Of a stretch of 64,000 nt of DNA, positions 622 through 12,468 are shown piece by piece (the stretch's first letter is position 1; every line of letters starts with the position of its first letter). The translations under genes and the position numbers were made by a program. Under the pieces are notes generated by a model. That model saw nothing but the letters and a program-made list of their open reading frames with translations, was not told the DNA's origin and searched no databases. The stretch lies in IMG/VR virus record IMGVR_UViG_3300021960_000018; one strand, given 5' to 3'. This stretch comes from a virus.

Positions 622-1092
622 TTAGATTCCTAGCAGTTTATCCAAATCTTTTACTGCATCGACAAATTCCCCACCAGTACCTTCAAGAAATTCTTTATAT
701 TTTAAAGCTTCTTCGTTCAATAATCCCTGTTGATTTACATGAGGATGTGGGGGATCGTTACAAATAGTTTGGTTAGGATTACGACCATCTGTCATCATCC
801 CCTGAGATTGCCAATTTTGCATTTGCTGATGTGCATCTGCTGGATTATTAATAGTTAAAAAATCTACACCAGCTTTCGGAACTTGTGCAACTGGTCCAAA
901 ATGTCTCATCAAATCAACCGCAGATTCAATATGTTTAAGAATCATAAAGCCGGCGATAGCTGCTTTGTTATTCTGGTGTCTACTCAATTCTCCAAATTTT
1001 TGAATAGTATCACTAATTAGTTCTACTACTTCAAGCGGAAGAACTTGATTTTCAAAATCTTCATCTTCCAAATTTTCATTTTCTTCAGCCAT
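622..1092 (-). CDS. hypothetical accessory protein
   Basis: 156-aa ORF overlapping the upstream rSAM stop; acidic N-terminus. Confidence 0.7.
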   Translation of the reverse strand: MAEENENLEDEDFENQVLPLEVVELISDTIQKFGELSRHQNNKAAIAGFMILKHIESAVDLMRHFGPVAQVPKAGVDFLTINNPADAHQQMQNWQSQGMMTDGRNPNQTICNDPPHPHVNQQGLLNEEALKYKEFLEGTGGEFVDAVKDLDKLLGI

Positions 1093-1981
1093 TCAAGACT
1101 TCCCCTTCTTTAATAAAATGGTCAAATGGTAACATATTTTCATCATTTCCCAATGTAGCAAAAGTTTCAGCAGCGTAATAAGTTTTTCTAGAATGATTAC
1201 CCGTACAACCATCACAAGTATCACAGAAAAATGAACATATAGGATGTTCTAATTTACCGGTATTCCACAGTTCTCTTAATTTATCTGCTTGTGCCTTTAC
1301 TACTTCTTTTTGTTCTTCATCTAAATATTCTACGATTGATGTAATAACCCTTTTTGGATTAAACGCCTTTTGAATACGTAAAATATCTGGAGCAAAATAA
1401 TGATAATTATGCTGCTGAATAGTATAACGAATTCTAAAGTTAATAGGTAAACCTGCTAATAATTTACAAGCTTCAATCACATCAGTAGAAGATTCTTTTC
1501 CACTTCTATATATTCTATCTTTATTACCTACGCCGTCGTATGAAATATCCCAAGAGGATCTTTGATTAATCTCTGGATGGGCGGCAATATAATTTTTAAA
1601 TTCCTCGAAAAATTTAGGTTTGGTCCAACGAATTCCATTTGACACTACATTAAAATGAACATTAGATTTCTTTCTAGTAGCATATTCCATAGACCAGCAT
1701 AAATTTTCCCATTCAAGAGTTACTTCACCACCAAACATAACAAATAAAGTTTGGGATTCCATTGGTTCATTATCAATAGCTTTATCAATAGCAGCCTTTA
1801 GTTTGGCCCGGGTCATAATCTGTTTAGGCTGACCTTCTAATACCTCATAACAATATGTGCATGCAAGATTACATTGATTCGTAAAATATAAAACGTTTAC
1901 TGCAGTATCAGGAACTTCTTTATCATTTTTATGTTTATTATCGTAATAAATTTCATCCTGAATTTTCGGGGCGTTTGACAC
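1085..1981 (-). CDS. radical SAM protein with shortened Cys-rich C-terminus
   Basis: CNLACTYC (CxxxCxxC), FGGEV, ISYDG; C-terminal CSFFCDTCDGC. Confidence 0.88.
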   Translation of the reverse strand: MSNAPKIQDEIYYDNKHKNDKEVPDTAVNVLYFTNQCNLACTYCYEVLEGQPKQIMTRAKLKAAIDKAIDNEPMESQTLFVMFGGEVTLEWENLCWSMEYATRKKSNVHFNVVSNGIRWTKPKFFEEFKNYIAAHPEINQRSSWDISYDGVGNKDRIYRSGKESSTDVIEACKLLAGLPINFRIRYTIQQHNYHYFAPDILRIQKAFNPKRVITSIVEYLDEEQKEVVKAQADKLRELWNTGKLEHPICSFFCDTCDGCTGNHSRKTYYAAETFATLGNDENMLPFDHFIKEGEVLNG

Positions 1982-2258
1982 CTTTTAAAGCCTCCGACAT
2001 ATTTGTTACAAATTCAGTGAAATCAATTTGATAATCATATAGATGGTTTTGAATTACTTCTTCATCTTTAATATACGTAATATCGACTCGAGCTAATTTT
2101 TTGGATGCCACTCGATTTTGTAAATCTTGAGCCAGTTTTTCAGCAGACATAATCTTACTAGCATCATCCTCTGATATGCTATTTATCAGCTGCTTTGTAC
2201 TCTGTACAAGATCGATAACTTCTTTCTTAAGAATTGGTACAGGTAGATCAGGTCTCAT
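1953..2258 (-). CDS. hypothetical protein between rSAM genes
   Basis: 101-aa, helical-looking ORF with ATGA overlap to the upstream rSAM. Confidence 0.65.
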   Translation of the reverse strand: MRPDLPVPILKKEVIDLVQSTKQLINSISEDDASKIMSAEKLAQDLQNRVASKKLARVDITYIKDEEVIQNHLYDYQIDFTEFVTNMSEALKGVKRPENSG

Positions 2259-3340
2259 CCCATGCTCCTCATTAGATTTCTAACATAACCCTGGAATGCA
2301 GGTTCATATTTACATTCTCTTAATAATCTCATTGCTTGTTCATTAATCATATGAAATAACTCGCATACAGAATCGACTGGCGCATTGTTATTATTAATCT
2401 GTGAATAGGTACAACCCATATTACAAACTTGACGAAGGCGACATGTATCGCACTTTTTATGGTTTAAGTTTGATAATGCATTTTGCCAATATTCATAATC
2501 GTACGTAGCACCATCCATTGGCATAAGCTTTTTAGATGCGAAGCGAGCACATGGATAAAATTTTCCCTCTGGTACTAGAACCGCACCGGAATAACCTGCA
2601 AAGCAACCGAATGGTCTTTTACCTTTTGCAAGACCGATAGTCATATCCTGTAATGCAAGAGATAAGAATCCAACCGAAACGTTTCTTCCATCTTTAAAAT
2701 ATTGGATGGTTCTATCGGTTAATTTAATTAGTTCCTGATAGAATGTTCTAAGATGATCTTCTCTCCAAACATTATCACGAACAATACAGAAATCTGGATT
2801 CCATACACCCCAATCAACCAAGAATTCTAAATTCTCGGTCATTGTTCCCGCATTACCGGGATAGATCATAACTTTACAACCGGATCTACCATGCTTAAGA
2901 ACAAGATCTTTTTTGGCTTCATAGATCTCCATAATATCGTTAAACCCTTCATTCGCTTTATGGTTACGAATTAAAGGTCTTGACTCATTTGATCCAATGC
3001 CGTCAAAGCTCCAAGAGATTGAGATTTCATTATCTTCAATAAATTGGCTTTTATACTCATCGATCATAGTCATATTAGTAATAATAACTAGATGTTTACA
3101 TTTAGGATCACTTTTAAAATATTTAGTAGCATGCTCAATTAATTCCCAATTAAGCATGGGTTCTCCACCAAAGAATGATACTGCATATTCATCATTATTA
3201 CTTCTACGGATTAATTCCTGTAATTCATCTACGGAATTATCAAAAGTCTCTTTAGTAAGAAATGTCGGTTTATTCACAACATAGCAATAAGGACAAGCAA
3301 GGTTACATTGTTCCGTTGTAGATAATTCTAATGTAAACAT
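2255..3340 (-). CDS. radical SAM/SPASM peptide maturase-like
   Basis: CNLACPYC, FFGGEP, SFDG; SPASM CFAG...YPC...CDTCRLRQVCNMGC...C. Confidence 0.92.
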   Translation of the reverse strand: MFTLELSTTEQCNLACPYCYVVNKPTFLTKETFDNSVDELQELIRRSNNDEYAVSFFGGEPMLNWELIEHATKYFKSDPKCKHLVIITNMTMIDEYKSQFIEDNEISISWSFDGIGSNESRPLIRNHKANEGFNDIMEIYEAKKDLVLKHGRSGCKVMIYPGNAGTMTENLEFLVDWGVWNPDFCIVRDNVWREDHLRTFYQELIKLTDRTIQYFKDGRNVSVGFLSLALQDMTIGLAKGKRPFGCFAGYSGAVLVPEGKFYPCARFASKKLMPMDGATYDYEYWQNALSNLNHKKCDTCRLRQVCNMGCTYSQINNNNAPVDSVCELFHMINEQAMRLLRECKYEPAFQGYVRNLMRSMG

Positions 3341-4627
3341 TTATTCCCCCGGAATCACAAATTCTTTTTTAGCACTAATGCTAGATTTAACTTCTGCAGG
3401 AATCATTACGTGTTTTTTATTCGGAGAAGATTTCTGAACAGTACGTTCTTGAATATATCTAGGATCAGTTGCTTCTACTTCTACAAACTGATAAGTTGTT
3501 TGCGGAATGGCCATCGGTTGTCCAGTAGGTCTTGCTGCCATCACCGCATTAATAATAGGCGTAGCGGTTTTAAATACTGAACACATGCCGGTATTAGCTG
3601 GGTTATCCTGCCAAGCTGTACCATATCCTTTTTCTTTTTTAGCAGATTTCTCATAAGAAGAAGCTGGGCATTTTAGACAGAATGGGCTTGAGCAACTATT
3701 GCACCAGACCTCTGTATTTTTATTAAAGTCATCCAGATAGCTTTTATATTTTGCGGACATATCTTTAATGACTTCATTTAGATCTTCTTTCATTACATTT
3801 CCTAAAGCGTGATCGCTTTGGTTCCTGTACATACACCCGTGACAGGGATAACTCTGACCATCAAGATCAATAGAGATAACGTCGATACCTGCAGAACAGT
3901 TTGCTCTCGATTGTCTAAACCAACCGAAAGTAGTAAGTCGCATATTATTATCTAAAATGTGCCGCCCGATTTTAAGTAAGGAAACTTTTAAATCACTTAA
4001 CCACTCTGCGCGATCTTCTTTCGACGCAGTAGAGTGAACGTCCGGTGTAGGCATATAATCTTCGCCAACTGATTGAAAGTCGAGGAAGGCTTCATACATA
4101 TATTTAAAATTATGCCCTGATAAGGTTGGCTTAAGAGAAGCGCTGATCCCATTATCTTTTAACCATAAGAAATAATCTTTTACATTCGCAGAATATTTAG
4201 TAGAAACACCGCCTGTAGTCAAACGCTCTTTACTATTAATTGGCTCACCGTCATAAGAAATCTGGATATGAAGCCTTGGCTGACGAGTTCTTTTAGGATG
4301 TTTCATAAACTCATCGCGAAGCCATAGCAACTCTTTTTGGTATTTCTTAATATAAACCCCGTTTGTATAGAACATAAATGTTACTCTACGGTCATCCATA
4401 AGACCCTTCATAACATCCATACAAAGTTTCATATTCATCATGGGTTCACCGCCCCAGAAGTAAATGTTAATGTCATTATCATCTACTCCGCTGATCTTTT
4501 CGATAAGATCCCCAGCGCTTAATTCAGTATGTTGCTGAAAAGCAGAAGATAAACCGCAGGCGTCGCCTTCAGAACAATAGGTACACTTTAAGTTACATTT
4601 ACTTGTTGTGTTGATTTCTATATGCAA
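3341..4627 (-). CDS. radical SAM/SPASM peptide maturase-like
   Basis: CNLKCTYC, FWGGEP, ISYDG; SPASM CSAG...YPCHGC...CNSCSSPFCLKC...C. Confidence 0.92.
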   Translation of the reverse strand: MHIEINTTSKCNLKCTYCSEGDACGLSSAFQQHTELSAGDLIEKISGVDDNDINIYFWGGEPMMNMKLCMDVMKGLMDDRRVTFMFYTNGVYIKKYQKELLWLRDEFMKHPKRTRQPRLHIQISYDGEPINSKERLTTGGVSTKYSANVKDYFLWLKDNGISASLKPTLSGHNFKYMYEAFLDFQSVGEDYMPTPDVHSTASKEDRAEWLSDLKVSLLKIGRHILDNNMRLTTFGWFRQSRANCSAGIDVISIDLDGQSYPCHGCMYRNQSDHALGNVMKEDLNEVIKDMSAKYKSYLDDFNKNTEVWCNSCSSPFCLKCPASSYEKSAKKEKGYGTAWQDNPANTGMCSVFKTATPIINAVMAARPTGQPMAIPQTTYQFVEVEATDPRYIQERTVQKSSPNKKHVMIPAEVKSSISAKKEFVIPGE

Positions 4628-4922
4628 GTTTAATCTCCTCTAACTCACGTTTTAAACTTAGAACTTCTTGTCTAAGTTCTTGATTGGCTTTTAATGTTAA
4701 TACCGCCAATCCTCGATGATCGACTCTTTTAGTACCATCACTATCTATCCATATTAAAAGAGGATCTACATTTTCTAATTCATGTGCTAGTACACCGATT
4801 TCTTCGTGTCTCGGTCTAAAAGGCGAATCTATTTTATAACTATATTTGTAAATTCCAACAGTAGATAATCTATCCGCCCATTCCATATTTTTCAAACTCT
4901 CTTGTTTTCCATTCAATTCCAT
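4599..4922 (-). CDS. stand-alone body of a peptidase S74 intramolecular chaperone, lacking the N-terminal SDxxxK motif (start may be 4886, MEWADR)
   Basis: YKYSYK...IGVLAHELENVDPLLI...KRVDHRGLAVLTLKANQEL plus coiled coil fits the S74 pattern Y-x-W/Y-K...G-x-I/L-A-Q/H-E...VdY...AiqEL. Confidence 0.78.
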   Translation of the reverse strand: MELNGKQESLKNMEWADRLSTVGIYKYSYKIDSPFRPRHEEIGVLAHELENVDPLLIWIDSDGTKRVDHRGLAVLTLKANQELRQEVLSLKRELEEIKLAYRNQHNK

Positions 4923-5256
4923 TATCAGTTAGAAATTGTTCAACTTCGCTTCGAGTGACCCCGTCATATTTTAAAGTATAGGTATAACTTCTATTTTTCC
5001 ACATACAACATTCAGCAGCATAATTAAAAGTACCGGGCATAGGCTTTCGAGTAGTATTTTCTTTTTTACTCATTATAATAAGAAAGTTATTTGTAACGAT
5101 CTTTGCTCCATACTTATTCCATTCTGAAATATCTGGTAATGGTGTTTCTGGATCTACTTCTATTACCATCCCAGGTTTTAAAAAGCCTCTAACTTCTGTA
5201 AGAGCTAATTGATTAATACCCTTATCCGAAACTAATGTCATTATAGATCCCCCCAA
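4870..5256 (-). CDS. hypothetical accessory protein
   Basis: 128-aa ORF in the coupled operon; the start may be the internal MTLVS. Confidence 0.65.
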   Translation of the reverse strand: MGGSIMTLVSDKGINQLALTEVRGFLKPGMVIEVDPETPLPDISEWNKYGAKIVTNNFLIIMSKKENTTRKPMPGTFNYAAECCMWKNRSYTYTLKYDGVTRSEVEQFLTDNGIEWKTREFEKYGMGG

Positions 5257-5801
5257 AATTCATCCCATGAGGCTTTATCATCTGGACCGTGGGGTCTACA
5301 GTATTTACCATTAATTAATTCGCCTTCTCCTTTGAAATTGGGATAGATGTTTGCAACTAAATGAGGAGGAAAATCATAATCTTCGATTCTAATAATGCCC
5401 CACATAGAGCTCGGGAACATTTCCCCACCTAAATAAATCGCAGGATATGTCGTATGTCTACCAATGTGATCAGGATCGGTACGATTATATAAAGGCATGT
5501 CACCAATTTTTAGACTGGATGGATCAGCGCCTTCGATAAAATCAAATCCGAAAGCATTAAAATCTTCTAATAGTAATGCCATGTTCGATGCACCGGCAAT
5601 AGCATAATGTTCAACATATTTGTTATCTAATAAATCTTGCCAAGCATTATTTTCAGGATATATTCTTACTAAAAGTTCAGCTAAAAAATATACGGGCATA
5701 CCCACGGGCGATCCCGCTACTTCCATTCTCAGTGCTCTATCTAAAGATTTTTTCCAGCATTCTAAAATAATAGAAGCCTTTTCCTGTTTCGTCCAGCTCA
5801 T
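5241..5801 (-). CDS. hypothetical protein, possible degenerate NlpC/P60-like fold
   Basis: LKIGDMPLY...HTTYPAIYLGG resembles NlpC/P60 L-x-P-G-D...H-x-x-I-Y-x-G; no DCS catalytic motif. Confidence 0.5.
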   Translation of the reverse strand: MSWTKQEKASIILECWKKSLDRALRMEVAGSPVGMPVYFLAELLVRIYPENNAWQDLLDNKYVEHYAIAGASNMALLLEDFNAFGFDFIEGADPSSLKIGDMPLYNRTDPDHIGRHTTYPAIYLGGEMFPSSMWGIIRIEDYDFPPHLVANIYPNFKGEGELINGKYCRPHGPDDKASWDEFWGDL

Positions 5802-6169
5802 TTATTCTTTTCACTCCATATCCAAAGAATGCTATAAAGATCGCTAAGAGGATTATATAATTGCCGGGATCTTCCACCTGCAGTATTTTTAGAAGTATCT
5901 GGTTTATTCTTAATAGTTGTCATAAATTCCGAAAGAACCCGGGAAACATTGTCAGCTCCAAACCTTTCTGTTAACGGACCTTCAATATATTGAACCCCAC
6001 TTTTATAAAATGCTGGGGTATCAAATTCCACTCCGTCTACTTCCTGCCCACAGATATTATCGTTAGTTAAATATCCCCACATCATAAACAATAATAAATC
6101 ATCACTATTAGAAACTTCTGAAAAATTTCTTTTAAAAAAATCACTATTTTCAATATGTTTTACTAACAT
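5798..6169 (-). CDS. hypothetical accessory protein
   Basis: 123-aa ORF directly after the Cys-rich precursor; ATGA overlap with the next gene. Confidence 0.7.
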   Translation of the reverse strand: MLVKHIENSDFFKRNFSEVSNSDDLLLFMMWGYLTNDNICGQEVDGVEFDTPAFYKSGVQYIEGPLTERFGADNVSRVLSEFMTTIKNKPDTSKNTAGGRSRQLYNPLSDLYSILWIWSEKNK

Positions 6170-6176
6170 CTTTCAC

Positions 6177-6710
6177 TTAGTTCCTTCCATCTAGTCCTTT
6201 AATATTTTCTTTGACAACAGGATCAGAGCAGCACTTGTTGCAGTTACAGGTACAGAAGTTACAATTGCACGTGCAGAAGTTACAGTTACAAGTGCAGAAG
6301 TTACAGTTACAAGTGCAGAAGTTACAATTGCATGTACAAAAATTACAGTTACAAGTACAGAAGTTACAGTTACAAGTGCAGAAGTTACAGTTACATAGAC
6401 ATGCTGCTGACCAAGTATTCAATTGAGTAGTTAACTGATTAAATTCAGTAGCTTGAATTACTGCCGATGCTGTAGAATAGGGGAAAGTACCAATTCTAGC
6501 TGTCAAATCTGCTGCAAGATTATTTAAACGAGCAGCAGTAATTGCATTTCCTGCAGAAGCAGCAGGCCAGTTAGTACTTGTAGTAGAAGCACCTCTACGT
6601 GTTAATTCATTGATAGCTTGATCCCGAATATTATTCCAATCAACGGCATCAATAAGAGTGCCGGCAGCAACTGTTGAATATTGGTTATTAGCAGGACAGG
6701 GCGATCCCAT
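6177..6710 (-). CDS. Cys-rich repeat protein, putative rSAM-modified precursor with C-terminal S74 cleavage motif
   Basis: ~105-aa N-terminus with three AGxxIxAxxxNxL-like repeats, then 7x CNCNFCT + CNCNKCC, then SDPVVKENIKGL; 27 Cys in total. Confidence 0.85.
   Translation of the reverse strand: MGSPCPANNQYSTVAAGTLIDAVDWNNIRDQAINELTRRGASTTSTNWPAASAGNAITAARLNNLAADLTARIGTFPYSTASAVIQATEFNQLTTQLNTWSAACLCNCNFCTCNCNFCTCNCNFCTCNCNFCTCNCNFCTCNCNFCTCNCNFCTCNCNKCCSDPVVKENIKGLDGRN
6228..6395 (-). repeat. 8 x 21-bp coding tandem repeat (CNCNFCT heptads)
   Basis: Units such as TGTAACTGTAACTTCTGCACT; units 1-7 differ only at synonymous positions. Confidence 0.95.
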
Positions 6711-6713
6711 GGT

Positions 6714-7913
6714 TTATACCTTCACTTCTACTTGACCTTCACCACTATTTATAGCGACGCCAACGGTTAGTCCTGGGAGATAGGTTTCTGATGCAATTCC
6801 AAATCCAGACCCACCTGCAATAATATAATTGCCCTTTTTAGCCAAACCATGAATTTTTACAGGAATTCTACCTTTAAGAGCAATAAACGGCCAAAGTGGA
6901 TCATTTTGCTTTTCATCATCATCGTTCATTCTTAATCCAGGATTTTCGGAAACAACACCTGCAAGAGGAAGCCCAACTTGGTATAGTGTGACTTCATTTT
7001 TGCCACCAATACCTAAAACCGTACCAATAGGATATTCTTTATCTGCATGATATCTTTCTGCGAGGTCAGCAAAGTTAGCTGACGTTGCATTACCAGAGAA
7101 AGTGCTACAAGTTAAAGTATTACCTGTAAGCGTCATTTGAACCGTACCACCGGTTCCAGCATTATTCTCGGTATCACTATGCGATCCGCTAGTAAACCAA
7201 CTAAATCTGCTGGCGGATCTGAAGTATAAAGTGTTTGATTGAACGCCCAAACCGTAGCTAGAAGCATAAAGATCTACCATCTGTCTAGTTGCAGACCCGA
7301 ATGATATTTTAGAAGAAGTACCGAATTGCATATCGGTACCAGTAAACGCATCAGTAGTATCACTACGAAGGAATGATAGACTGTCAATGCCATCAAGTGT
7401 ATCTGCGTTTGATGGTCCTGGAGGCCCAACTGGTCCGGTAGGTCCCGTAGGACCTTCGGGACCGGTAGGACCAGTCGGTCCGGTTGATCCAGTGTCCCCG
7501 ACTGGAATAGTAAAGTCGAATACAGCAGCCGTTGATGTACCAGAGTTTGTAACTGATACCGAACCACCCGCTGGACCTGTAGTAACAGTTCCAACAGCAA
7601 TTGTCCCTGTTGGCCCGGTAGGTCCATTAGGTCCATTAGGACCAGTTGGTCCGGTTAAACCTCTAATCCCCCGAGTTAACCCAAAGTTAAATGTCGCAGC
7701 GGTTGTATCACCAGAATTTGTTACAGTCGGCGTTTGGTCGGAATCTAATAGAGATACAGTGCCAATAGTAATTGTTGCAGCAGTACCCTTTGGAGCATCT
7801 TTAAATGACGTGGCTTTCCAAATACCAGGATCAGAGTAATACGTATAGGTATTACCATTTATAGTATAAACCTGTCCATTCGTAGGACTGCCAGGAAAAT
7901 TTAATCTAGCCAT
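6714..7913 (-). CDS. tail fibre with collagen-like G-P-T repeats and C-terminal peptidase G2-type chaperone
   Basis: N-terminal [12 protein letters not shown] fibre motif; GPT/GPN triplets; C-terminal FADLAERY...GVVS.NP...[10 protein letters not shown]. Confidence 0.8.
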
Positions 7914-9541
7914 TATGCTCCTGCTCCGTATAGTGTTTTAACAGCAGATCCTGCTGAGTTATATATGACAAGCGTTACTGCACTTTGCAACATTGCTTGA
8001 TTGACCTGAACCTCGGAAACTTGCCCTCCGGCACTCGTTGAACCAAGAACCCGGTTGGCTGTTGCCACATTTTGCATACGGTTATATGTTACTGCATCAA
8101 ATGCAATCTTATCCGTAGTAACAGCCGAATCGGCCAATTTAAGATTAGATACGATGCCATCTGGGAGAATAGAAGGCGAAGCTTGAACCCATTGGGAGGT
8201 ATCACTATCTTGGAAGTAAATGTAAAGATCCCCAGCTGAATCATCCCACCAAAGCGCGCCAGAAGAAGGAGATGCAGGCGGGGTAGTACCAGTAGGAACA
8301 GCAGCCGAAGCCGCGATTGTAACTGTATCAGTAGTTGCATTCGTTGTAAGAGTAACACCAGCCCCAGCAGCTAATGTTAAGGTGTCATCATTTGTATCTG
8401 CTACAATAGTTGATTGACCGCTAACTGCAATATTTTTAAAGATATTCTGCGAAGAACCTTTATCGGTGTTAGTAATAGTGATATCACTATCAAGCGGATT
8501 GTTAATGCTAAACGTTGCACTTCCGCTAATACCGGATCCAGCAAATACCTTAATTGTACTATTATACACGGTTGGGATCGTTGGCGTATTCGAGAAGTTA
8601 TTATAATTTAAATAATAAGATCCAGCTTGTCCGCCTAATGTATCAGCATCCACTCCGCTTAGAGTATTAATAAACGAAGCATTAACTCTTAAATCGATAT
8701 CGCTATCGACTCTTGATTTCAAATAATATAGATTAGTTCCTTCGGATAAATCGGTAGTACTAGATGCGGCGATTGCTACTCCGAAATCAGAATCAAATCC
8801 TAAATAAATTCCAGATAGATTTCCTGCAGTTAATGTTCCGGCAATCGTAACATTGCCAGAGCCATCTTTTGATACAAGAGTACCAGAAGTTGGCAAAGTA
8901 ACTGAAGTATTTCCTGATGTAGTTAAAGTAGTTGTATGTGCACCAGAAGTAGTGAATGCACCTCCAAGAGTTAACCCGCCCCCAAGTGTAATTGTCTTAT
9001 CGCCATTTTTAATATCGAATGTTAATAGTCTATCTTGGGTAAGAGCAGTTGTACTAGTCGATGCGAATCTTGTATCATAACTTGTAGTTGTAGTATCTCT
9101 AAGACCGAACGTAGAAATCTTAGTAAGAGATGCAGGTCCAGTAATAGTAGGACCAGTAATAGTAGGAGACGTTAGTGTTTTATTAGTAAGAGTTTGAGTA
9201 GCACCAATACCCACAAGAGTTTCACCAGAAACGGCGGCATTAATCTGGTTAAATGTCGAAACTAAAGTGTTATTTGATAGGTTAATGGTTTTATTCGTTA
9301 AGGTTTGGGTAGAAGTTAGATATGCAACTTTTGAAGAATCTACATTGATGGTAGCAGTAGCTTCATGAGAACCACTACCGGTTACTATAATACCATTACC
9401 GTGAATAACCCCAGCTAAGTATGGCCCGCTAGTACCGGAGTCTAGCGGGATTACCGATGCATCGATGATATTTGTAACCGTAGCAGAATCTAGACCTTGA
9501 GCTAGAGACGTGCTTAAGAAACTGCTTAGTTTAACTACCAT
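7913..9541 (-). CDS. tail fibre/virion structural protein
   Basis: TQTLTNKT repeats, [12 protein letters not shown] module, PxSPxxGxLWWD module; Ser/Thr/Gly rich. Confidence 0.8.
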
Positions 9542-9555
9542 TCTTTATTCTTTCT

Positions 9556-12468
9556 TTATGCCTGAGCTTCAGACCATCTTAACATTGTTGACACCCGAGC
9601 GTTACCTGTAGTAGTTCTAATATTAATAGCTAGAATGTCAGGACCATCTGGGAATTTAAAGTCACCTCCCAATGGTGCGCCCGTAAGTTCTTTTAGATCG
9701 GTAAGAGGAAGCGTTTCAGAAATAGATCCCGTATCTGCACATGGGAACACCGCACCGAAGATCTGTTCACCGGGTAGAGCATATGTTCCAGTTGAATATG
9801 TAACCGATGTGGCAATCTGAGCAAAGCTAGGCTGTCCACCATCCGCTTGGGATGTTAAGCTTTGCCACGTTGCTGATACATAATTCCTTGGATTTAGAAT
9901 GCCTTCAACGATAATAGCACCTGAAGAAGTACCGTTCGCTCCGGCAATTGTAATAGCCTGTAGCAATAGTTGTGATCTATTCAAAAGCTGTTTAGCCCCC
10001 AGTCGTCCAACTAGCCCGTTATCAACAGAAGGAGCCAAACGAATTAAGAACTGAGTTAGTTTAGTTGTAGTTGTATAGATATGTTCACGTTGAAAGTTAA
10101 ACATATAACCACGATCATATGTAAATCCACCATCCATCATTAAAGCTGAACCCCAGTGAGTTAGGGTCGGCGAACAGGTATTGGAAACCTCTAATACCCC
10201 GGTTCCAGATGTATGAGGAACTGCCGAACCCGCGGTTAGGTTATTAGTAGAACCCTGTTGATATTGTACTAATGTACCGGCTCGAGTACACCCAGTAAAG
10301 TTACCGGGCCCGTCAGTAGCAGATCTCCCGGTATAATTGATAATTTCGTTGTCAATATATAAGGTACCGGTGTCCGTAAATTCCTGAAGATCTGCACATG
10401 GAATTGTCGTAGCAGATGAATCGATATTAGAAGTTAAGTAAGTTAAAGGCGCATCATTGTCAATAGAGTAACGAACCGGAAGGTTGCCGGATCTCATATA
10501 GGCTTCATTATTTACGTTGTTATTTTTAATTCTATGGACATATACCCACTTACCATCAGAACCGCGAACCATAAAGTGAATAAAGCCTGCACCATACCAA
10601 GAATATTCAATGCCGACCATCTGCATTTTATTAAAGTTCCAGTTATATCCGGAAGGGCCTGTACCATCGCATTTGTCAAGGTTCCACTTCACTTGCGGAA
10701 TTCTTCTTTCAGTAATCGCCTGCGCACGCACGCCTGAAGCAGTAATACCTCTATAGTCTGGAGAAATATAAATCTGGGTATTACTTACTACTTGTGTAAC
10801 AAAGTGGGTCATACCTCTGATAATAATTCTTTCACCGGCATGGAGTTGTTCCGAGAATCTGGTATTGGTGCCAGTAATTGACTGACTATTCTGAGTGACC
10901 GCCAAAGTACCGGAAATATTATTAGTTGATGTACGAGAAACGCAGAACATTTGGTTGCCGTCAAATTCGAAGAACACGCCGTTTTGGTCATCGAATAATC
11001 CACCACGAACCGCAGCACCAATCCAAGATTTTACGTAAACCGAGGATCTTGCCGCAAGAACTGCAGTTGTATCGCCTAATGCTCCAGTAGCTAAAACTTT
11101 AAATGTATAGTCGTCTACAATACTATCAACGGTATATTGGCCTTCATATCCACTAGTTAATACCCCAGAAAGTTGAACGACGGCGCCGGGCTGAAGGCCG
11201 TGATCAATATCGTCGGTTTTAACAGTAATTTCTGATCCTGAAGTAGTTCCGGATGCCGTAATGCTTTGGATATCATAGTTCGGTGCAAATAATGTACCCG
11301 AAGACCAAAGGAAACCTTTACCAGATTGATATCTGAAATACCGTTTGGTTTGACGGACCACCTGAGCCGCATATGTTGGGGTTTTTGTAGAAAGAATAAC
11401 ACCACCATCAGCAGGTCTATGAACAATAGTAGAGTTAGAAAGTGCATAGAAAGTGGCATTAGAAGGAGAAGTAACTGAAGCACCCGGTCTTGCAGTATAC
11501 GTCAATGAAGTTAAACTAGGGGTAGATTTAATAAAGAATGGACCAGAGGCATATGATACATTTGTACCAGAAGCGATATCAACGTGGATATTTGTTCCTG
11601 GAATTAGACCATGAGGGGCAGAAAAGTTAACCGTAATTACAGATGGATCAGAACCATCTGATGAAACGCTGCTTACGGGAATACTCGCATTTTCATATAA
11701 AGCCCCTAATTTTACTAGAGTTTCTTCTGTATATAATGATTGACCACTGGCTGTACCTACTAAGCCACGAGCAAAATAACTAAGGCTAGTAGAAGACGGA
11801 ACAGCATAGATAATAAAACTACCATCGGCACGAGAGAATCCTGACGTACCGGCATTTAATCCGGATACGTTTACTACATTACCAACTGAAAGACCGTGGC
11901 TTGTTGTGAATGTAACAGTAATAACACTATTTGTAGTAGAAGTAGTCTGATAATCTGTTGTCATAGTGCTAACAACTAGATCAACACCCGGTAATTCATA
12001 TACTGATGGATAACCTTTCACAGTACCATAACCAGCCCATTTAGTAGGTTGCAGGCCATATTCAAAGTCAGCATCGATCATTGCCTGTGGATTAGATACC
12101 CGCATACGTTCAATAGCGTCTGTACCAAATGCCCATGGTCTAATTGTTTGCCCGTAATCTTCTTGATCTTCAACATAAATTTGTAGTTTATCAGTTGAAC
12201 TCATTGCAGAAGCATTATACTGCAAAGTAAATGTGGTATAACCATCATGAGCCTGAGTAATCCTAGGGAAGTTAGTACCATCAGCTTCTGTAAATACGGC
12301 AGTAGTTCCGGCAAATGAAGCATCTGCAAAGTTATATAAAACAACATTATCGGTTACGTTAGTAATCAAAAGAAGTTTATCTAAAGTATATCGACCAGGA
12401 ACTTCAATTGTTGCAGATCCAGCAACTCCCGGTGTAAAATAATATTCTCTAATAAGCTTTTTAGCCAT
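9556..12468 (-). CDS. large virion structural/fibre-associated protein
   Basis: MAKKLI...LLLITNVTDNVVLYNFAD N-terminus, IDADFEYGLQPTKW, repeated HGLxxG beta modules, YSWYGAG; style typical of marine T4-like virion proteins. Confidence 0.75.
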   Translation of the reverse strand: MAKKLIREYYFTPGVAGSATIEVPGRYTLDKLLLITNVTDNVVLYNFADASFAGTTAVFTEADGTNFPRITQAHDGYTTFTLQYNASAMSSTDKLQIYVEDQEDYGQTIRPWAFGTDAIERMRVSNPQAMIDADFEYGLQPTKWAGYGTVKGYPSVYELPGVDLVVSTMTTDYQTTSTTNSVITVTFTTSHGLSVGNVVNVSGLNAGTSGFSRADGSFIIYAVPSSTSLSYFARGLVGTASGQSLYTEETLVKLGALYENASIPVSSVSSDGSDPSVITVNFSAPHGLIPGTNIHVDIASGTNVSYASGPFFIKSTPSLTSLTYTARPGASVTSPSNATFYALSNSTIVHRPADGGVILSTKTPTYAAQVVRQTKRYFRYQSGKGFLWSSGTLFAPNYDIQSITASGTTSGSEITVKTDDIDHGLQPGAVVQLSGVLTSGYEGQYTVDSIVDDYTFKVLATGALGDTTAVLAARSSVYVKSWIGAAVRGGLFDDQNGVFFEFDGNQMFCVSRTSTNNISGTLAVTQNSQSITGTNTRFSEQLHAGERIIIRGMTHFVTQVVSNTQIYISPDYRGITASGVRAQAITERRIPQVKWNLDKCDGTGPSGYNWNFNKMQMVGIEYSWYGAGFIHFMVRGSDGKWVYVHRIKNNNVNNEAYMRSGNLPVRYSIDNDAPLTYLTSNIDSSATTIPCADLQEFTDTGTLYIDNEIINYTGRSATDGPGNFTGCTRAGTLVQYQQGSTNNLTAGSAVPHTSGTGVLEVSNTCSPTLTHWGSALMMDGGFTYDRGYMFNFQREHIYTTTTKLTQFLIRLAPSVDNGLVGRLGAKQLLNRSQLLLQAITIAGANGTSSGAIIVEGILNPRNYVSATWQSLTSQADGGQPSFAQIATSVTYSTGTYALPGEQIFGAVFPCADTGSISETLPLTDLKELTGAPLGGDFKFPDGPDILAINIRTTTGNARVSTMLRWSEAQA

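Follow-up and report, generated by a model that had tools for sequence, protein, structure and literature searches.

The stretch of DNA analyzed here, referred to below as the window (64,000 nucleotides), corresponds to the minus strand of an IMG/VR virus record (IMGVR_UViG_3300021960_000018) that is 157,283 bp long and has terminal repeats. The record belongs to a T4-like phage, and near relatives place the region just upstream of the genes for T4-type gp13, gp14 and gp15. Along the minus strand, the gene order begins with a 970-residue virion protein, a 542-residue fiber-like protein and a 399-residue collagen-like fiber protein, continues with a 177-residue protein that carries a run of Cys-rich heptads (the Cys-heptad protein), three open reading frames (ORFs) of 123, 186 and 128 residues and one further small ORF, and ends with three radical SAM genes, the second and third of which have a 101-residue ORF between them. 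The subject of this report is the Cys-heptad protein, which ends in the first segment of a Peptidase_S74 domain (PF13884), together with the small ORF, which encodes the remainder of such a domain and is called the body here. An earlier note on this DNA had proposed that the two are halves of a naturally split S74 chaperone. A two-chain S74 domain is well supported by the sequence comparisons reported below, which extend this reading from the window to a whole family of Cys-heptad proteins from many uncultured phages.

A Peptidase_S74 domain divided between two genes

The Cys-heptad protein consists of an N-terminal helical domain of about 100 residues, eight C-x-C-N-C-N-F heptads and the S74 tail. 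The tail opens with Ser162-Asp163, has Lys167 five residues on and continues with Glu-Asn-Ile (Asn169, Ile170), just as the earlier note had read it, and both members of the Ser-Lys dyad of PF13884, Ser162 and Lys167, are located on it. The strict motif SD-x3-K-x-[ND]-I was looked for in ORFs from all six frames of the 157,283-bp genome, and this tail is its single occurrence. Population variants of the protein (P0230-P0234) differ from one another by whole heptads, with 4, 7, 8 or 9 of them, but hardly at all in the N-terminal domain and the tail, the only change in the tail being from Lys171 to Arg. An AlphaFold model of the monomer has three confident helices at residues 22-102 and heptads of low confidence, and a fold search with this model left the N-terminal helical domain unmatched (best E about 3). 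GenBank phage searches with the nucleotide sequence of the region and with the heptad protein returned nothing.

The body ORF most likely starts at the ATG at position 4886, which gives the 95-residue form used by gene callers (P0080). It lacks a Ser-Asp-x3-Lys motif. What it does cover begins with the first helix and continues through the aromatic strands and the G-x-x-A-H-E core to a putative coiled-coil helix at the C-terminus. On its own it aligns to positions 16-54 of PF13884 with 17.3 bits (E 0.0058), the curated cut-off being 22 bits. When the tail is placed in front of it, the match covers positions 1-54 and scores 26.3 bits with the Met-Glu that opens the ORF and 30.3 bits without these two residues, above the cut-off. 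The tail adds 9-13 bits and therefore supplies what the body ORF lacks, so that the description of ORF 4599-4922 as the rest of the S74 domain, beginning where the tail stops, holds true, as does the expectation that the concatenate would outscore the ORF alone. A PF13884 search of the whole genome returned the body ORF as its single match. With one tail motif and one S74 match in the genome, their pairing is far beyond chance. A decayed Ser-Lys strand in the N-terminus of the longer ORF, which starts at 4922, was considered and rejected, since Pfam aligns this ORF from profile position 16.

Matches to the body include the C-termini of tail fibers in 108 phage records, tail-fiber PHROGs and residues 109-196 of PDB 6F45, the tip of the S16 long tail fiber (E 2.8e-6); it aligns to 8JOV as well. 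Up to residue 196, the C-terminal helix of 6F45 is matched by a helix-like segment of the body. The aromatic strand and the Gly/Ala core expected of an S74 "donut" are both present, with Tyr15, Gly31 and Ala34 invariant in seven free-standing bodies.

Canonical S74 domains are single chains. In the window, the tail runs into a stop codon and the body begins at a separate start at a distance of 1.3 kb; in relatives the body gene likewise has its own start and adjoins the tailed gene. We have therefore filed the pair as a split S74 variant rather than as a canonical member. It is only the two pieces joined that match the PF13884 profile at the level of a family member in the window, and related free bodies score 22-38 bits alone.

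Tails, bodies and junctions across the Cys-heptad family

The heptad protein has 79 detectable homologs; in IMG/VR, scans with single-sequence patterns returned nothing and an alignment-based scan succeeded. Three classes can be distinguished by their C-termini: proteins that end at or just past the last heptad, proteins with a short Ser-Asp tail and proteins with a complete fused S74 domain. The last class comprises 12 proteins, all of them flagged by PF13884, so homologs with the two parts fused, which the earlier note had suggested looking for, do exist. A solved-structure search with one fused homolog gave no meaningful match.

The tails are strikingly uniform. Among the distinct tails, 26 of 27 are exactly 12 residues long, the exception being the 16-residue tail of the window, and one 13-residue tail was seen in locus L036. 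Their consensus is Ser-Asp-x3-Lys-x-(Asn/Asp/Glu)-Ile-x-aromatic-hydrophobic-stop, with an invariant Ile at position 9 and the aromatic residue at position 11. Neither Ser nor Lys varies in an alignment of 30 tailed and fused homologs or among the 27 distinct tails, an invariance that is partly by construction since tails were selected by their Ser/Asp/Lys pattern. That pattern does not account for the constant tail length, for the invariance of the Ile or for the scarcity of decayed tails among tail-less members, and the Ser/Asp/Lys/Ile tail that the earlier note had expected to be conserved in precursor homologs is conserved across the 27. Among tail-less members, a single protein may hold the remnant of a decayed tail (P0035, L043 8001-8435); it appears to have kept Lys-x-x-Ile-x-hydrophobic and lost Ser-Asp, and the 8 kb to each side of its gene contain no body ORF. 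Of 47 tailed or fused forms, 45 have Cys-Asn-Tyr before the Ser, and this tripeptide, the predicted end of the product, is also the exact C-terminus of 8 of the 31 tail-less proteins. A further class of 540-residue heptad proteins, found in three IMG/VR records of 175-183 kb (L017, L018, L030), has a long Cys/Asn-rich C-terminal region and no S74 tail; its length is that of the 534-position profile of phrog_26958, and a single radical SAM gene is found nearby.

To follow the body through the family, all six-frame ORFs of 26 IMG/VR loci and several metagenome contigs were scanned with an iterated S74-body profile, a first profile built from the fused S74 forms having been too narrow. A body ORF without a Ser-Lys strand of its own was found in 7 of 10 distinct tailed loci versus none of 9-10 tail-less loci (Fisher p 0.003). 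It adjoins the tailed gene in L002, L005, L016, L025 and L031; the distance is 5 kb in L020 and 1.3 kb in the window. In six out of six other free bodies, the PF13884 match begins at profile position 16-20. A word-based search with the body returned only itself. An exhaustive HMMER search with a profile of seven bodies against 1.8 billion cluster representatives yielded free-standing bodies as 59 of the best 150 representatives, 76-131 residues long and all starting at the first helix. Four of these independently found bodies were looked up and DNA was obtained for three; in all three the body directly follows a tailed heptad gene.

Other arrangements were also seen. The tail-less locus L027 has a heptad protein followed directly by a 223-residue protein with a complete S74 domain and its own Ser-Lys strand (7809-9251), and a second protein of this kind (180 residues, own Ser-Lys strand) 3 kb upstream (4388-4930). 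Tandem heptad paralogs are common (L002 9986-11484, L036 2996-4674, L019 7168-8339). Two tagged paralogs precede one shared body in L002; a tagged paralog, a body and an untagged paralog follow one another in L036; and two tagged paralogs stand together in L019, where the tags are identical, and on the contig of P0027 and P0028.

If the halves were joined at the level of RNA or translation, by an intron, trans-splicing, a frameshift or read-through, the domain would not truly be split. The junction in L002 would suit such joining, as its tail and body are in frame and parted by a single TAA, and read-through lifts the PF13884 score from 36.7 to 51.5 bits over profile positions 1-55. The other junctions speak against it. 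They vary by lineage and are in different frames, with spacers of 0-40 nt (a one-base overlap or 10-40 nt) and with Shine-Dalgarno sites and starts of their own, and in L002 itself, as in L036, a second heptad gene sits beside the halves. In the window, the three ORFs that the earlier note had placed between the halves are intact, are retained in near relatives and are under purifying selection (ratio of nonsynonymous to synonymous substitution rates, dN/dS, 0.05-0.11), and an Rfam search of positions 4300-6900 gave no match and hence no known intron. With junction frames that differ, separate ribosome sites and no Rfam intron, the intron or recoding explanation was rejected, and joining of the chains in any of these ways is scarcely credible. 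The three intervening ORFs, which have no Pfam or PHROG match and no homolog in the other heptad loci compared, are a lineage-specific insertion; the halves adjoin in most relatives.

Fused and split forms replace each other in syntenic cassettes. L045 (fused, 8001-8681) and L005 (split, 10001-10555 and 10555-10815) are syntenic gene for gene, with orthologs 38-73% identical, in the order sugar dehydrogenase, two radical SAM genes, small ORF, third radical SAM gene, small ORF, heptad gene and an ORF of 133-135 residues, and their sole architectural difference is one gene versus two for the heptad protein and its S74 domain. Within the window, comparison of positions 2255-6400 with L038 and L039 reveals a mosaic in which the end of the heptad gene, two intervening ORFs and radical SAM gene 2 are 100% identical, and the body, the third intervening ORF and radical SAM gene 1 are 94-97% identical, which suggests recent recombination inside the cassette.

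Proposed assembly in trans and tag cleavage

Two systems with characterized S74-type domains offer a guide to what the two pieces could do. The scissile Ser1264 of T5 pb1 is followed by 12 residues that loop around the other chains ahead of the first hairpin; this Ser is activated by Lys1269, and trimer folding is initiated by a C-terminal coiled coil (PMC4690869). The cleavage site of MyRF lies on a "cable" that passes through a six-strand "donut" with an aromatic lining; Ser587 and Lys592 are both indispensable, and trimerization is driven by the coiled coil (PMC8326128). By analogy with these proteins, the natural break of the split S74 falls exactly between cable and donut, and from this position we infer a mechanism of four steps in trans. 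The Cys-heptad protein has only the first S74 segment, a cable of 12-16 residues with the predicted scissile Ser and catalytic Lys, and the rest (first helix, aromatic beta-strand donut and a coiled coil presumed to trimerize) is encoded as a separate protein of 85-100 residues. Three body chains would trimerize through the coiled coil; the C-terminal tags of three heptad chains would insert into this trimer and complete the S74 fold; the completed fold would set the register and nucleate folding of the Cys-heptad stalk trimer from its C-terminus; and the Ser-Lys dyad of the tag itself would cut before Ser162 and release the tag, leaving the body free for another round. We put the probability of this reading, a two-piece Peptidase_S74 domain with the dyad on a tag of the client and a separate body, acting by assembly in trans and tag cleavage, at roughly 0.6.

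In the earlier note, the two-chain S74 was taken to be the protease of the pathway. The two-chain part of that claim stands, and "protease" is imprecise, as the catalytic residues are on the tail of the substrate itself. Since Ser and Lys are both on that tail, the separate protein would supply a scaffold rather than an active site. For the same reason the body does not qualify as a follower-peptide protease of the kind known from ribosomally synthesized and post-translationally modified peptides, having neither residue. The analogy with follower removal (a C-terminal follower in a radical SAM cassette) may nevertheless hold functionally, even though the body is no protease gene.

A complex of three tags and three bodies, which the earlier note had proposed to predict, was modeled with a score of 0.35 (runs 0.40, 0.27 and 0.35) versus 0.00 for the best control; at least 79% of contacts are shared between runs, and the predicted local distance difference test value (pLDDT) of the partners is at least 74. 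Of 80 solved complexes, 58 reach that mark, as do 2 of 110 mismatched pairs; with a score of 0.60 or lower, only 7 of the 80 solved complexes reach it, along with both passing mismatches.

Several points weigh against the mechanism or limit it. At the score obtained, the modeled 3:3 complex, better than its controls as it is, lends weak support to binding in trans, and it may have passed owing to its likeness to solved S74 structures; binding, trimerization, cleavage and recycling are all deduced rather than observed. The upstream "sensor" residues of phage S74 domains could not be identified in the Cys-heptad stalk. Three tailed loci (L003/L004, L015 and L023) have no detectable body in the available DNA, and whole-contig Pfam searches of L015 (207 kb, 66% complete) and L023 (21% complete) found none. 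The fused S74 domains of the heptad family are short, at 65-70 residues, and lack the coiled-coil helix, so that cutting the fused domain in two would not by itself yield the split body. Finally, the pair in the window is the most divergent member of the family: its tail has 16 residues rather than 12, Val-Val replaces the Arg-Leu of the others and the Ser is preceded by Cys instead of Tyr, and its body reaches only 20 bits when scored with a profile made from the other free bodies, whose main clade does not include it. In a tree of these short sequences, the window body is on a long branch beside the fused S74 domains of giant proteins; tail and body are collinear with those domains, and compared with the other family members the break is shifted by about four residues toward the C-terminus. 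The window lineage may have replaced the pair or split it independently, and its split may in principle be a weaker one. Both pieces are kept under selection either way.

This divergence, the 1.3 kb between the pieces and the fiber genes just upstream would also fit a relic, parted by the three-gene insertion, with a vestigial tail and a body that serves another client (e.g., a neighboring fiber protein) or has no role. Selection does not bear this out. The body gene is under purifying selection, with dN/dS of 0.06-0.16 at dS of 0.20-0.43 against four related contigs and only conservative changes among variants, and the tail has undergone one conservative change while the number of heptads varies. 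Moreover, the genome holds no other protein with the tag motif and no other S74 domain, the body gene and the first radical SAM gene of its cassette overlap, and the body in L020 is likewise 5 kb from its tailed gene. We thus regard a relic as quite improbable.

A different possibility is that the tag is a docking strand only, bound permanently, with the body staying on as a non-covalent cap or knob and no cleavage taking place. The complementarity and co-occurrence data fit this too, transient or lasting chaperone "caps" are known for other phage fibers (PMC10579305), and the window has Cys before the Ser instead of the usual Tyr of the family. Docking alone would need no dyad, however, and none of the tails found has lost Ser, Asp or Lys; the predicted cut is often precisely where tail-less relatives end; and the S74 domains studied so far all cleave (PMC4690869, PMC8326128). 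Permanent docking is accordingly rather unlikely, and trans assembly followed by cleavage remains our preferred reading.

It is plausible that the advantage of the split is that one body can serve several clients. As a more speculative extension, which we offer tentatively and consider less likely than its negation, the 12-residue cable might be a portable, self-removing assembly tag, read by a reusable body that serves several tagged clients. If this were true, the tag could allow multi-turnover chaperoning or mixed trimers, or could be a checkpoint at which the Cys-heptad protein is released only after modification by the three radical SAM enzymes.

The radical SAM cassette and related systems

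The features of the cassette are listed in Table 1. Radical SAM enzyme 1 has orthologs that adjoin heptad genes in most loci, and orthologs of all three radical SAM enzymes (window 1085-4627, minus strand) accompany Cys-heptad genes in nearly every locus fetched (L002-L031), the usual order being radical SAM gene 2, small ORF, radical SAM gene 3, radical SAM gene 1 and heptad gene. Some loci have additional radical SAM genes: nine ORFs in L005 carry the CxxxCxxC signature, and L028 and L043 also have several. Presumably the three enzymes modify the Cys heptads. A scan for promoters and terminators gave the same result for the window as for shuffled sequence.

Table 1. Features of the Cys-heptad cassette, in window coordinates.
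Feature	Position	Strand	Basis or remark
Cys-heptad protein, 177 aa	6177..6710	-	ORF list; 79 homologs; phrog_26958, function unknown
Heptad array, residues 104-161	6228..6401	-	
S74 "cable" tail, 16 residues, S74 profile positions 1-15	6180..6227	-	predicted cut before Ser162
Free-standing S74 body, 95 aa	4599..4886	-	PF13884 profile 16-54; alternative start 4922 gives 107 aa
Intervening ORF 1, 123 aa, function unknown	5798..6169	-	present in near relative L039
Intervening ORF 2, 186 aa, function unknown	5241..5801	-	dN/dS 0.06 vs L042
Intervening ORF 3, 128 aa, function unknown	4870..5256	-	17-nt overlap with body start; dN/dS 0.05-0.11
Radical SAM/SPASM enzyme 1, 428 aa	3341..4627	-	Pfam; start overlaps end of body gene by 29 nt
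Radical SAM enzyme 2, 361 aa	2255..3340	-	Pfam; orthologs in other loci
Radical SAM enzyme 3, 298 aa	1085..1981	-	preceded by conserved 101-aa ORF (1953-2258)
Collagen-like fiber protein, 399 aa, Peptidase_G2-type C-terminal domain	6714..7913	-	directly upstream of Cys-heptad gene

Relatives of the 399-residue fiber protein recur as ORFs of about 200 residues just upstream of the radical SAM cluster (L003 4484-5146, L024 4514-5197, L015 3041-3583, L019 2811-3353, L002 5759-6376), and others form the ends of proteins of 1500-2000 residues right before the heptad gene (L006, L009). The collagen-like fiber protein may be a further conserved partner of the cassette. Only the gene neighborhood in this phage points to the heptad product as a possible virion fiber, as the earlier note had suggested.

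Literature searches found no description of a split or trans-acting S74, of the Cys-heptad family, or of radical SAM enzymes together with a phage fiber. The nearest relatives are the canonical S74 domains (K1F endosialidase; T5 pb1, PMC4690869; S16 gp37, PDB 6F45), with which the split form shares PF13884, a Ser-x4-Lys start, aromatic strands, a G-x-x-A-Q/H-E core and a C-terminal position on a repetitive, presumably trimeric phage protein, and probably also a C-terminal coiled-coil helix. It differs from them in consisting of two polypeptides, with the break after a dyad segment of 12-16 residues, and in having as its client a small Cys-heptad protein accompanied by three radical SAM enzymes in place of a beta-helical spike or long fiber. 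The ICA domain of MyRF (PMC8326128) resembles it in the cable-through-donut layout, the Ser-Lys dyad on the cable, coiled-coil trimerization and trimer-dependent cleavage, the last two of which are conjectural in the present case. That domain is a single chain, whereas here the cable and the donut with its putative coiled coil are separate gene products.

Free fiber chaperones (T4 gp57A and gp38, Tfa and the "caps" of Alteromonas phages) are likewise small separate proteins encoded just downstream of their client, which aid trimer assembly and need not stay in the virion (PMC7289586, PMC10579305). Unlike the split S74, they have unrelated folds, complete no domain begun by the client and involve no self-cleavage site borne by it. 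Split inteins and other fragment-complementing domains are similar in that a self-processing domain is spread over two genes and needs non-covalent reassembly to act. In contrast to split inteins, no splicing or ligation is involved here, the expected outcome is removal of a short tag, and one fragment has only 12-16 residues.

S74 is the textbook "intramolecular" chaperone of phage spikes and fibers and of the animal transcription factor MyRF, and to our knowledge all mechanistic work on it assumes one chain. A natural split makes several aspects of this chaperone testable, namely scaffold action in trans, turnover, the contribution of the 12-residue strand and the need for covalent continuity in cleavage. 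It also offers a small, genetically encoded, self-removing trimerization tag. For the family itself, the split S74 marks the Cys-heptad protein not as a small peptide free to diffuse but as an assembled, probably trimeric product of a cassette with three radical SAM enzymes.

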